A stretch of DNA of 64,000 nucleotides. Source: Sphaerodactylus townsendi. Taxonomy: Eukaryota. Where the stretch lies: assembly GCF_021028975.2 (NCBI RefSeq), contig NC_059425.1, positions 96,906,001 to 96,970,000 of the forward strand, written 5' to 3'. The notes under the pieces are model-generated. The model was not told the DNA's origin and made no database searches. It saw only the letters and a program-made list of their open reading frames with translations. Below are positions 1 to 5,095 of the stretch, one piece after another (within the stretch, counting starts at the first letter, position 1; the number at the start of each line of letters is the position of its first letter). A program made the position numbers and the translations under genes.

Positions 1-93
1 TTCCTCCTTGTGTGGGGACTCAGGTTCAGCAGAGCTTGGGTTACCAGGCACCTTCAGGAAGCTTGGCTCCTTCGATGGCTGCGGGCCCAGTAG

Positions 94-1110
94 TTCAGGG
101 TCCAGAGTTGGCAGGCTCTTCCAACTGGAGTCCAGAGTTGGCAGTCAGGGCCCAGTAGTTCAGGGTCCAGAGTAGGCAGTCAGACTGGAGGGGTACGAGC
201 CAGAGCCAGACGCAGGGGGAAGAAGGCCTCTCGTCGTTCTCATTGGTCCCCTAGCTCGTCCTCATCGGGTGAGTCTACAGATGAGGAGTCCGCCCAGGCA
301 GCAGGGGACTATTGGGAGAGAGGGGGAAAGGTGCCAGCTCTTCCCCTGTGGATCACTCAAAGGAGAAAAGGGGAGCTTGCAGTGGAGGACAGTGCCAGGA
401 ATGCGGGGGCTTCAGCCTTCTGCTCGGCATGGGATCTTGGAGACCCTCCAGGCTCCCATTTGACGAGAAAACTGAGAGAAAGAGCCCTGGACGGGTACTA
501 CGTGGACCTCTTCACGGTTTTGCGGCCGGAAGAGGATCCTGAAGAGTCTGGTTCCCGTTCGGCCAGAAGGAAAAGGGAACGCCCGGAAAAAGCTGAGCGT
601 TCCTTTGACAACTGGTCGAAAGGGTTTGCAGAATATATGGCCCTAATAGGAGCCGCTTACCCTTTAAGGGCTTGGCACCTAGCTGCTCATTGGGCCAATG
701 TTCTGAAGGCCCGGTCCCTATCAGGGGATGCAGCGGCCATGAAGTACGATGAAGCATTTCGTAAGAGTGCATCGCATCGTCCTGGGTGCAGGTGGGATCT
801 CATCCACGATCAAACGTGGATGACAAATGTTATTAAAATTACTCCTAGTGGGGCTGAGGGGCTGAGAAGAAAAGGGACTGGTCAGAGGGATCCTCCCCGT
901 CTTGCCTGCTGGGCCTTTAACCAAGGTTCCTGTAGGAAAGACAAGTGCAGATTTGAGCATAGCTGTTCTAGGTGCTTTGGAGCTCACACCAGGATACAAT
1001 GCCCACAACTGGCTTGGCCTCCCTTTCAACGTGGCCGGAACCCTGGCTCCGGCGGCTCTAAGAAGGACAGTGGTGGCCAGGGAGGATCCTTCCCCATCCA
1101 GAAGGCCTGA
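94..1110 (+). CDS. Gag-like ORF1 of the YR retrotransposon (C-terminal part) with CCCH/CCHC zinc-finger cluster
   Basis: Frame 1 is open from 94 (after TAG 91-93) to TGA at 1110. It contains YDEAFR..RWD followed by CWAFNQGSCRKDKCRFEHSCSRCFGAHTRIQC, typical of Ngaro/DIRS ORF1. Upstream continuity is broken by a 65-nt duplication. Confidence 0.85.
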   Translation, partial: FRVQSWQALPTGVQSWQSGPSSSGSRVGSQTGGVRARARRRGKKASRRSHWSPSSSSSGESTDEESAQAAGDYWERGGKVPALPLWITQRRKGELAVEDSARNAGASAFCSAWDLGDPPGSHLTRKLRERALDGYYVDLFTVLRPEEDPEESGSRSARRKRERPEKAERSFDNWSKGFAEYMALIGAAYPLRAWHLAAHWANVLKARSLSGDAAAMKYDEAFRKSASHRPGCRWDLIHDQTWMTNVIKITPSGAEGLRRKGTGQRDPPRLACWAFNQGSCRKDKCRFEHSCSRCFGAHTRIQCPQLAWPPFQRGRNPGSGGSKKDSGGQGGSFPIQKA

Positions 1111-1120
1111 AGTCCCGTAG

Positions 1121-2729
1121 GTTTTGCAGCGTCTCGCCCCTTCCCCGGTGCGTGTACAGCCTTTATGCCAGTGGCTAGAAAGGTATCTGGGTCAAGAAGA
1201 CGCACAGTATTTAAAGGAAGGATTTCAATTGGGCTTTCAAATCCCCTTTTCAGGGAGCAGGGTGGCAACCTCAGCTCCCAACTTAAAATCAGCCAGGGAA
1301 ATGCCTGTGGTAGTGGCTGCCAAGATTGCAAAGGAATGCTTGGCAGGTAGAATCGTAGGTCCCTTCGCAGAGCCTCCGTTACCCAACCTTAGGGTTTCCC
1401 CCATTGGGGTGGTCCCCAAGAAGGCCCCAGGGGAGTATAGGATGATCCAGCATTTGTCCTACCCCGCAGGGCGGGTCAGTGAACGACTTTATCGACCCGG
1501 GCATTTGCTCGGTCCGGTATGCCACTTTGGATGAGGCAGTGAGTCTCATCCGGGAGGTGGGAACAGCCTCGCTGTTAGCGAAATGTGATATACAGTCAGC
1601 TTTTCGGCTGCTGCCCATACACCCCAGGGACTTTGAACTTTTAGGCTTTCAATTTGGTGGACATTGGTATGTCGACAAATGCATGCCCATGGGATGCTCT
1701 ATAGCTTGCGCAGCCTTCGAAAAATTTAGCACCTTTTTGGAATGGGCGATCAAGGATCGCATGCCATCAACAAAAGTCACTCATTATCTTGATGATTGTT
1801 TATTTGTAGGTGCAGCTGGCACTGACGAATGTGTGGTGATGTTGTCAGCTTTTCAGGACTTGGCGGCCGAGCTAGGGGTCCCTTTGGCGGCTGACAAGAC
1901 TGAAGGGCCCGTGTCTTGTTTAACCTACTTAGGAATTCAGTTAGACATGGTAGCAGGAACATCTTCCCTGCCCCTCGACAAGCTGACAATACTACGCACA
2001 TTGATTGGAGACACCTGTGCAAAAAAGAAGTGCAAGTTGCGGGAAATACAGTCCCTGCTCGGGCACCTTAATTTTGCCTGCAGGGTGGTCTCCCTGGGAA
2101 GGGCCTTTTGTTCCCGCCTTGCCAGGGTCATGGCGGGCCACTCAGTCCCCCATCATCACATCAGGGTGACTTCAGGTCTTCGTCAAGACCTAGGGGTATG
2201 GTTACGTTTCCTGGAGCATTATAACGGGGTTTCCTTTTGGCAAGTTCCTTGGAAGCTTCAAGATAGTTTTCAGGTTCACACTGATGCAGCTGGTTCCATA
2301 GGTTTTGGTATTTATTTTAGGGGCCAGTGGTGTGCAGGGGAGTGGCCACCAGCGTGGACTCAGACCGGAATTTTGCGGGACATGACTTTTCTGGAGTTGT
2401 TCCCTCTGGTGGCTGCGGTTCACATCTCGAAGGAAGTGTTTCGCGACCATGCAGTTAAATTCTGGTGTGACAACCAGGCTGTGGTCAGGGTGGTAAACTG
2501 GCAGTCCAGCCGGTCTGAGCGAGTGATGTGGCTAGTAAGAGAATTTGTAATGGTATGCCTGACTAACAACATCTCTTTTAAAGCTGTTTTCCTGCCAGGT
2601 ATAACTAACAGTATAGCTGACGCTTTGTCTCGTCATCAGGTCAGCCGCTTTCGCTCCCTAGCTCCCGATGCCAGCCAGTTTCCGGAGAGGTGTCCAGACC
2701 ATCTGTGGTGTCTTGGCGGCAGTCAATAG
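1121..2729 (+). pseudogene. Reverse transcriptase / RNase H ORF with a single 1-nt frameshift near 1469-1474
   Basis: ORFs 1124..1534 and 1479..2729 join as SPIGVVPKK..YRMIQHLSYPAG/GSVND. RT motifs are KCDIQSAFRLLPI, PMG and YLDD. RNase H motifs are TDAAG, ELFP, WCDN and NSIADALSR. Confidence 0.92.
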
Positions 2730-3622
2730 CCGAAGGTGTCTTGCAGTCACTGGCTCCAGCTACTCATCGCGCGTATGAAGGGGCTCTGAGCACCTTCTTT
2801 GCTTTTGCGGCATCCATCGGCGAGCCTGTCCGTCAGGGGATTGCTAAGGACTTGGTGCTCCAGTACCTGGTTGATCTAAGGGACCGTCGAATGGCTGCTC
2901 GGACTATGAAGGTCCATTTGACGGCCATATCCTTTTTTAGCCAGGCCCTGGGAATCACCGACCATTCCCACTGTTTTGAAGCTCAAAGAGCCGTGGCTGG
3001 ATGGCAGCGCGCTTCCCCCAGGCCACAAGACAGTAGGCGGCCCATTACGAAGGAGCTCCTGGGAACTCTACTTGATGCCACAGACTCAGTTTGTGACTCT
3101 GCCTATGAGGCTACGCTATTCCAAGCCTTATTTACTTTGGCCTTTTATGGGGCCTTTCGGTGTAGCGAGCTAGTTGCCCCATCCACTACATCATTGGCTC
3201 CTATGGCTCTGCAAAGGGTCGATGTGTCCTTGGTGGATGGGAACTTGCTTATATGGCTGGCGGGGTCCAAAACTGACCAGCGTCGTCGGGGAACGAGAGT
3301 AACATTGTCCCCCTCCCCACCAGGGTCACCTTGTCCAGTGGTTCGCATGGCTGCATTTTTGGCTGTCCGTCCTGATGGGCAGGGTCCACTGTTCATCCAT
3401 AGCGATGGATTAGCAGTGTCCAGATACCAATTTACAGTGGTTCTGCGGCATTGCTTACAATTTTTGGGCCTCCCTGCTGAACAGTTTGGTTCCCACTCCT
3501 TTCGAATCGGAGCGGCAACCACAGCCTCTCAGGAGGGCCACTCTGCAGCTGAGATTCAGGCTATAGGCCGCTGGAGGTCTTTGGCCTATCGTGTGTATGT
3601 CCGGCCTCACCTTTTGTTGTAA
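2690..3622 (+). CDS. Tyrosine recombinase (phage-integrase family) of the YR retrotransposon
   Basis: Catalytic residues are in order: R (FYGAFRCSEL), K (SKTDQ), HxxR (HSFRIGAAT), W (GRWRS) and Y (YRVYVR). The ORF overlaps the RNase H end by 40 nt. The true start codon is uncertain. Confidence 0.93.
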   Translation: MSRPSVVSWRQSIAEGVLQSLAPATHRAYEGALSTFFAFAASIGEPVRQGIAKDLVLQYLVDLRDRRMAARTMKVHLTAISFFSQALGITDHSHCFEAQRAVAGWQRASPRPQDSRRPITKELLGTLLDATDSVCDSAYEATLFQALFTLAFYGAFRCSELVAPSTTSLAPMALQRVDVSLVDGNLLIWLAGSKTDQRRRGTRVTLSPSPPGSPCPVVRMAAFLAVRPDGQGPLFIHSDGLAVSRYQFTVVLRHCLQFLGLPAEQFGSHSFRIGAATTASQEGHSAAEIQAIGRWRSLAYRVYVRPHLLL

Positions 3623-3638
3623 CTCTGTTCTTTTATAG
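3623..3638 (+). promoter_or_regulatory. Candidate 3' splice acceptor for the hydrolase ORF
   Basis: ctctgttcttttatAG: a polypyrimidine tract plus AG (3637-3638) between the YR stop codon and the hydrolase domain. Confidence 0.55.
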
Positions 3639-3643
3639 TTCCG

Positions 3644-4240
3644 GTGGCCCGTCGTTACCAAGTTTGGCTGGTTGGCCACAGTATAGTGCACTGGGCCGGG
3701 CGTTACGCAAAGAAGTCTGGCTGGGGAGAACACCTGGGTCTGGACACCTCCGTGGACATTCGCTGGCTGGCGAGGCAAGGCATGATGTGGCCTACTCTAC
3801 TCCTCCGGTTGCGGAACTCCATTCTTCAATTCGGCTTCCCTGATGCAATGGTAATACAACTGGGGGAAAATGACATTTCCTCTTCCAAGGGAGTAGCGTT
3901 GCAGAACTCCATGAGGGATGACTTGAAGTTGATCCACTGCAAGATGCCGAAGACCAAGCTGTTCTGGTCGTGCTTACTAGAGCGGAGGACTTGGAGGAAT
4001 GCCGTGGCTCCGGCCAGAGTTAATAAAACCAGGTCTAAACTGTGTCGGTCCGCAGCCCAGTTGGTAATGAACATGGGAAAGGATGTTATTCCCCATGTTG
4101 ATTTATCTCATGCTTTACCAGCATTGTTTTTGCCCGATGGAGTCCACTTATCGGATTGGGGCCAGGACATCTGGTTACATGATGTCTGTCATGCTCTGCT
4201 GCAGTGTGCTTTCGCGGGTTCAAGCACTCGAGCTGGCTGA
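3644..4240 (+). CDS. SGNH/GDSL-family hydrolase (esterase-like) accessory ORF
   Basis: Block I is VWLVGHS (Ser), block II Gly is in RQGMMW, block III is QLGEND and block V is DGVH. There is no ATG upstream of the catalytic Ser. Confidence 0.85.
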   Translation: MARRYQVWLVGHSIVHWAGRYAKKSGWGEHLGLDTSVDIRWLARQGMMWPTLLLRLRNSILQFGFPDAMVIQLGENDISSSKGVALQNSMRDDLKLIHCKMPKTKLFWSCLLERRTWRNAVAPARVNKTRSKLCRSAAQLVMNMGKDVIPHVDLSHALPALFLPDGVHLSDWGQDIWLHDVCHALLQCAFAGSSTRAG

Positions 4241-4718
4241 GAACTGGTTCTGCTCTGATGCAGTGACTTTGGCGTGCACGCACTGAGCTGTGTGACTCTG
4301 GGCTTCTTACAAGTTGAAGGAAGGAGCTGTTGGTTTAACAACAGCCTCGGTGGCGGTGAAGCATAAGAGCACGATCCTATTTGGGGAAGGCAGTAGCTTG
4401 CGTGCTGAACCTTCCCCACCTCGGGGGCCTCCATATGAGGTCTGTGGTAGCGATAGAGCTCTTGTAAACAAAGCCTTGGGGCCGTGCTGAGAGCTCACTG
4501 CCCCGCAGGGAGGGGTGTCACAAATTGGGTTTGCGTCCATGTGGCATCTAGTAACTTCCTGTTCCAGTTCCCTTGGGGGATGTGCCGGACAGGGGTTCTG
4601 TCCGAAGGGCCTAAGGGGTCAGCTTGGGCTGCCCTATAACCAGGTTCAGCGGTTTGCTACCTGGGGGCCAGGATGTGCTCTGTTATGCTCGCCCAGCTTC
4701 AAGGTTTTGGTTATGTTA

Positions 4719-4724
4719 AATAAA
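4719..4724 (+). promoter_or_regulatory. Polyadenylation signal of the retrotransposon
   Basis: AATAAA followed ~35 nt later by the GT-rich tract gtatgtgttagtgtttttggttgg. Confidence 0.55.
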
Positions 4725-5095
4725 ATTTGGGCTGCGGCCGATTTATTTCCAACAAGTATGTGTTAGTGTTTTTGGTTGGAATGAGTCTCCACACATTCCC
4801 ATGCAATATGACTTGCACTCCTTAGCTAACTATTATGTACCTGAAATTCATTTCACTATCTATTGTGAAAAACCACATTATGCACTTACTTTGAGAGTCA
4901 TGGGGGAGGCGCCAGAGGGTGATTTTCCATCCCTCCAGGTGTGCGCTCGGTGCGCTCGGTGTGCAATGCACCCTTGCCACTCTGCCACTGGTGCCCAGGG
5001 CATTTCCCTGGATGTCCCCATGGGAGCTTCGCCACTGCTTTCAAGCTCACCTATATGCAATATGAGAATAATGCTGGCTTAACTTACATAGGCCC

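Follow-up and report, generated by a model that had tools for sequence, protein, structure and literature searches.

In retroviruses, the env message is produced by joining a splice donor in the gag region to an acceptor ahead of the last open reading frame (ORF), with pol skipped. Among tyrosine-recombinase (YR) retrotransposons, a hydrolase ORF is already known from Ngaro elements, with no proven function in the available text of two studies (PMC9210276, PMC6681497). In the retroelement ZfL2-1, the esterase of the ORF1 protein (ORF1p) binds acidic lipids, according to the available sections of PMC3905857. Here we describe an element at the beginning of a 64,000-nucleotide stretch of DNA from Sphaerodactylus townsendi (NC_059425.1, positions 96,906,001 to 96,970,000; "the window" means this whole stretch). 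The element is a copy of a Ngaro-like YR retrotransposon with a fourth ORF (ORF4) that encodes an SGNH hydrolase, a class assignment based on ORF order and repeats. An initial annotation had proposed that a phase-1 splice joins the N-terminal part of Gag to this hydrolase, a product referred to as Gag(N)-esterase. For the family, this proposal is supported by nucleotide conservation and by RefSeq gene models of other lizards, and intact copies very probably splice the gag donor to the SGNH acceptor, giving a predicted fusion of about 370-540 residues. For the window copy itself, the proposal does not hold.

Conservation of the two splice sites

We analyzed 80 copies of the element. The window's family is represented by all 40 listed DNA matches, and a divergent sample consists of 40 copies at about 45-56% identity, picked from 151 protein matches. 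The copies sort into 15 families, between which ORF4 DNA is 47-72% identical.

The acceptor AG at 3637-3638 lies just before the esterase domain, in phase 1 of the open frame 3623..4240, as the initial annotation described it. This AG is kept in all 40 window-family copies. In the full sample, 78 of the 80 copies (the exceptions are L086 and L110) and 14 of the 15 families have their first AG past the pyrimidine tract in phase 1, with a binomial probability of 2e-6 if the families are independent, which overstates the case. The phase match, to which the initial annotation had allowed a one-in-three chance, therefore exceeds chance. Around the acceptor, both the residues and the YR-to-ORF4 frame (0, 1 or 2) vary while the phase-1 AG stays.

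The donor is also present as described, a near-consensus GT at 269-270 in phase 1 of the open frame 94..1110. GTGAGT is found in 33 of the 35 window-family copies with an alignable gag region, and the remaining two differ at one base. Across the sample, the place of the donor could be identified in 57 of 80 copies, from 10 families, and 56 of these carry GTGAGT in phase 1. Conservation of both sites across copies, proposed as a check by the initial annotation, is thus seen within the window family and across families. The donor codons read G-E-S, S-E-Y, S-E-L, S-E-F or S-E-S by family, so that residues vary and nucleotides are kept. All six Ser families use AGT for the serine at the donor, apart from one F2 copy with AGA; adjacent serines are mostly TCN, and AGT accounts for 9.8% of Ser codons in gag and reverse transcriptase (RT). 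A null model restricted to third bases gives 6e-8 assuming 10 independent families and about 2e-4 for five lineages, the families being related. In a motif-free scan of the 80 copies, 59 sense-strand occurrences of GTRAGT fell 3300-3550 nt upstream of GHS, against 2 on the antisense strand.

Joining 268 to 3639 preserves the frame, as both sites are in phase 1, and the 3370 nt skipped contain the zinc knuckle, RT/RNase H and YR. At least 150 open codons between ATG and donor, together with an intact exon 2, are present in 28 of the 63 copies with both sites located. The predicted fusion products have 368-543 residues, with a Gag part that ends in a basic patch; Gag would contribute about 220-350 residues. 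Such a pairing of a conserved in-phase gag donor with an acceptor ahead of the final ORF corresponds to an env-type layout.

In the mechanism that we propose, the unspliced RNA would serve as genome and as Gag/RT message, and the spliced RNA would provide the start codon usually missing from ORF4, giving the hydrolase a route of expression. The low-complexity Gag N-terminus, ending in Arg/Lys, would tether the esterase to the RNA-protein particle of the element. The splice would also define a protein to test, namely a basic Gag fragment plus esterase.

Two further features were observed near the acceptor. In most divergent families, the first AG is followed 8-12 nt downstream by another in phase 1, and the window's family keeps the first only; the tandem phase-1 AGs in L083-L120 sit 23-38 nt upstream of GHS codons, with a spacing of 9 or 12 nt in nearly all. 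Additionally, a branch-point-like TRAY (TAAC, TGAC or TAAT) overlaps the YR stop in the window family (3620-3623 in the window) and in several others.

The ORF4 enzyme

S14, N77, D166 and H169 are invariant in an alignment of 18 SGNH sequences (18/18). Block I reads GHS rather than GDS, and the Gly of block II is not invariant. The structure model of the domain has a predicted local distance difference test score of 87.7, and GDSL/SGNH enzymes head its fold matches (E 1e-7). Searching PDB with an alignment profile gave no matches. As modelled, the ORF4 domain folds as an SGNH hydrolase with the catalytic Ser, Asn, Asp and His kept; this predicted soluble hydrolase fold is not classed as env.

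Junctions in gene models

The homologous proteins are RefSeq gene models and were compared as proteins. Among 17 longer homologues, 12 are Podarcis or Zootoca models in which a basic patch, a Ser run and a Gly are followed by the SGNH start. The other five comprise one with a basic patch and a different junction, two with YR pieces and two with unrelated N-termini. A search with one lacertid Gag N-terminus returned 34 proteins. Of these, 18 run on as full Gag with a zinc knuckle, and 14 change over to SGNH, 13 of them at the Gly just mentioned; of the last two, one is truncated and the other passes into YR. This junction, SPSSG, is also present in two Paroedura models. We infer that ab initio gene prediction would not pass over the long RT and YR ORFs. 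Other long N-termini occur in 60 of the best 150 representatives, Bombina models among them, and a homologue search limited to proteins of 1804-5000 residues gave 3 matches.

Some models combine the domain with other proteins. P0001/P0028 (ZNF318-like, Eublepharis) and P0006/P0029/P0030 (ZNF638-like, Zootoca) have an SGNH or RT piece of Ngaro type at their end, which suggests read-in from other transcripts through these acceptors. The long proteins P0059, P0060, P0174 and P0187, as well as P0061 and P0063, contain SGNH domains that resemble those of Ngaro elements (about 28-35% identity); two are labelled fish cold-shock-domain proteins and others have several SGNH stretches. These long proteins may represent domestication.

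Counterevidence and alternative explanations

Several observations weigh against the proposed splice. No junction read was seen: in four runs of DNA-like contigs, the predicted joint is not among the 15 joints listed of 240, which makes this result uninformative. An intron-less copy was not found in genome G000 with two exact patterns, which miss divergent copies. The RefSeq junctions come from gene-model proteins and were assessed apart from DNA and RNA support. A filter for basic patch plus Ser run was passed by only 8 of the best 150 representatives, and 3 of the 8 have a different junction, the other 5 carrying the Gag-Gly-SGNH junction; judged from these proteins, the Ser-run donor context does not occur universally. 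The motif for locating the donor was drawn up with the data already in view and fixes Glu and the class of the next residue; because it was picked post hoc, only the third-base choices count as a test. Moreover, the families are related, so statistics based on independence overstate the significance. The remaining points, an upstream ATG in some copies and gecko models with other donors, are considered below with the explanations that they favor.

In the intron-less search, the exon-2 motif matched G000 once when its A was removed, versus 49 matches with AG. The sole intron-less candidate in that genome proved to be a full copy, riddled with insertions, that carries an extra G, and a pattern combining a Ser run with GHS gave 3 matches, all unspliced acceptors.

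ORF4 might instead be translated from an ATG of its own that overlaps the YR stop region; either reinitiation or a short internal transcript would then yield a free esterase of about 220 residues. As the initial annotation reported, the first in-frame ATG of ORF4 in the window is at 3782, past the GHS serine codon (3680-3682). Its conclusion that the enzyme cannot arise by normal initiation is correct for the window copy and incorrect for 29 of the 40 family copies, in which an upstream ATG, at codon -26 (window 3597-3599), is in frame with ORF4. The initial annotation had named an ATG upstream of the SGNH start in the family as a finding that would speak against the splice, and these 29 copies have one. 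In ten of the 40, the window copy included, the tract is shorter by one base, and one more copy lacks that ATG. Since the earlier premise mirrored a single copy, a test across older families was needed. In the 40 divergent copies, in-frame ATGs occur at -23 to -27 in 4, at -45 or further in 5, and at -1 in 2; in families F5 and F6 the ATG is at -25. The other 29 of these 40 copies, drawn from 14 families, have no in-frame upstream ATG, and an ATG of ORF4 itself therefore fails as a general route. Furthermore, the ATG is a by-product of the YR Tyr-Val codons (TAT GTN), and in the 10 window-family copies where it is out of frame, several of them from one subfamily, the AG is kept. Initiation at this ATG also leaves the conserved donor unexplained, and we consider it very unlikely as the source of the enzyme.

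A second explanation is that the acceptor is used mainly with another donor, such as one in a leader exon, at a different site in gag or within YR, in which case this Gag(N) fusion would not be the product. Four gecko-labelled predicted proteins, 96-100% identical to G000 loci, enter ORF4 at the acceptor, none of them via the Ser-run donor; all four use other donors. P0002, P0004 and P0018 fuse YR pieces to SGNH, and P0001 and P0006 fuse unrelated N-termini. However, the alternative donors differ from model to model. The Ser-run GTGAGT is the only one found repeatedly at a fixed place across families, and it is also the one on which the lacertid and Paroedura models agree. Predominant use of another donor thus seems slightly less probable still.

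Finally, a YR-esterase fusion made by stop readthrough or a programmed frameshift, with the splice-like motifs incidental, is extremely improbable: ORF4 is in the frame of the YR stop in the window copy and in F7, F9, F10, F11 and F14, often with TGA-C or TAA-C, a leaky-stop context, but the YR-to-ORF4 frame is 0, 1 or 2 by family and differs within the window family (10 versus 30 copies), which disfavors readthrough or a fixed frameshift, and the same TRAY motif suits a branch point.

State of the window copy

The window copy is unable to make the Gag(N)-esterase fusion, because its gag frame is shifted and stopped ahead of the donor. The frame from the gag ATG stops at 173-175 and would reach the donor in the wrong phase. 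RT is frameshifted as well. The question of splicing therefore concerns the family of this copy.

One copy in G000, L085 (G000:C9:9662100-9670600), is internally deleted, with RT and most of YR lost. Its gag N-terminus is still open, its SGNH exon is intact and both splice sites are retained, with a predicted intron of 1076 nt.

A candidate second acceptor at the YR ORF

The YR ORF has no conserved early Met across families, and a phase-1 CAG following the RNase H motif ADALSR is kept in 9 of the 11 families examined. In F10, there are YR-frame stops past that CAG position, followed by a pyrimidine-rich phase-1 AG 60 nt downstream. The gene model of one Podarcis locus (P0055/P0208) joins Gag(N) to YR, with residues suggesting a joint at the homologous CAG. 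We tentatively propose that a single gag donor pairs with either of two acceptors, one ahead of YR and one ahead of SGNH, so that recombinase and esterase would both be fused to the basic Gag N-terminus. Two points argue against the YR acceptor: the CAG is a conserved RNase H Gln codon whose phase 1 follows from the ORF overlap, and the modelled locus is a single one. It is because this CAG is also a conserved Gln codon that the proposal is kept tentative. For RT, no phase-1 AG was found at a shared place before the ORF across families, and we make no splice claim for it.

If the proposal is correct, it would amount to a retrovirus-like alternative-splicing program in a tyrosine-recombinase retrotransposon. 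Use of the same donor for YR would also bear on how overlapping ORFs without start codons are expressed. Copies that bear on the YR-start candidate are L095, L102, L106 and L111.

Element layout

The translated ORFs and Pfam matches follow the order gag, RT/RNase H, YR, with overlaps, and the domains found in the window region are RT/RNase H, tyrosine recombinase and GDSL/SGNH (Table 1). The YR match falls under the curated Pfam cut-off (E 2e-4). In a Pfam scan of the element, a methyltransferase domain is absent and the SGNH ORF comes after YR, in agreement with a Ngaro-like assignment. Split direct repeats of the Ngaro-like form A1...B1-A2-B2 are complete in 10 of 39 other copies; the window copy has A1 and one B only.

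Three 48-nt tandem repeats lie in the N-terminal half of gag (L011:3877-4042, window -123 to 42); they preserve the frame and are present in other copies too. Several copies (L121, L122, L125, L127-L129, L131 and L140) are full of small insertions, which look like unpolished assembly error rather than decay.

Table 1. Features of the element in and upstream of the window
Feature	Position	Strand	Remarks
A1-type repeat	L011:2190-2380, upstream of window		repeat comparison among copies
gag ATG	window -703 (= L011:3297, upstream DNA)	+	start outside window
Short duplication, 32-nt copies 65 nt apart	83..179	+	gag frame from ATG broken here
gag 3' part	94..1110	+	basic patch, Ser run, conserved Gag region, zinc knuckle; translated ORF, no Pfam match
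Predicted 5' splice site CGG-GTGAGT (GT 269-270)	266..274	+	preceded by Arg/Lys patch and Ser run; phase 1 in gag
Predicted intron, 3370 nt	269..3638	+	Gag C-terminus, RT/RNase H and YR removed; inferred
RT/RNase H ORF	1121..2729	+	frameshift-split here (1121-1534 and 1446-2729); Pfam RVT_1 E 3e-13
Candidate acceptor at YR ORF start (AG 2638-2639)	2619..2640	+	phase 1 in YR frame, inside RNase H ADALSR motif; weaker evidence
YR ORF	2621..3622	+	first Met about 90 codons in
ATG within YR end (TAT GTC)	3597..3599	+	out of frame with ORF4 in window copy
Branch-point-like motifs	CTCAC 3606-3610; GTAAC overlapping YR stop 3620-3622	+	sequence
Predicted 3' splice site (AG 3637-3638)	3606..3638	+	pyrimidine tract, ...ttttatAG, phase 1
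ORF4 open frame	3623..4240	+	predicted exon 2 = 3639..4240; SGNH (GDSL-like) hydrolase, motifs GHS, GEND, DGVH
Single B terminal repeat	4352..4806	+	A2, B2 of other copies absent here

Comparison with known systems

We did not find this splice reported in the parts available of the literature on Ngaro/DIRS YR retrotransposons and hydrolases; older Ngaro papers and Repbase entries might mention it. Nothing on it appears in the available text of PMC7192593, PMC3783388 or PMC7599744, and that of PMC9210276 has no occurrence of "splic" or "intron". The Xenopus elements DIRS-53_XT and DIRS-54_XT are alike in gag, RT/RNase H, YR and SGNH ORF and in having split repeats A1...B1-A2-B2, as far as covered by the text of PMC9210276. 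The same text assigns the hydrolase ORF to amphibians, whereas here it sits in a lizard-type genome.

With respect to expression, the closest parallel is the env message of gypsy, in which a donor in the gag region is joined to an acceptor before the last ORF, pol is skipped and a start is supplied (PMC2585583, available sections). The analogy to env splicing drawn by the initial annotation is apt for the RNA layout but not for the product. According to the same sections, the gypsy splice merely creates an ATG, whereas here the 220-350 or so Gag residues would be fused to ORF4. The gypsy and retroviral product is an envelope glycoprotein; here it is a predicted SGNH hydrolase.

The protein layout recalls ZfL2-1 ORF1p (4c1b), where an SGNH domain is C-terminal to an arginine-rich motif in a retroelement structural protein, as described in the accessible part of PMC3905857. 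The likeness to esterase-bearing LINE ORF1 proteins, also noted in the initial annotation, extends to this arrangement of a basic or arginine-rich segment with an esterase, but as an analogue, not a close relative: 4c1b is among the weak sequence matches (E 0.85), ranks 35 in the fold search and is no closer to ORF4 than bacterial GDSL enzymes are. By analogy with the ZfL2-1 esterase, the fusion might act at membranes, a suggestion that we regard as speculative. The ZfL2-1 fusion is one continuous ORF, whereas here it would come from splicing. The predicted Gag-esterase would thus resemble the arginine-rich-plus-esterase layout of some LINE ORF1 proteins, arrived at by another route.

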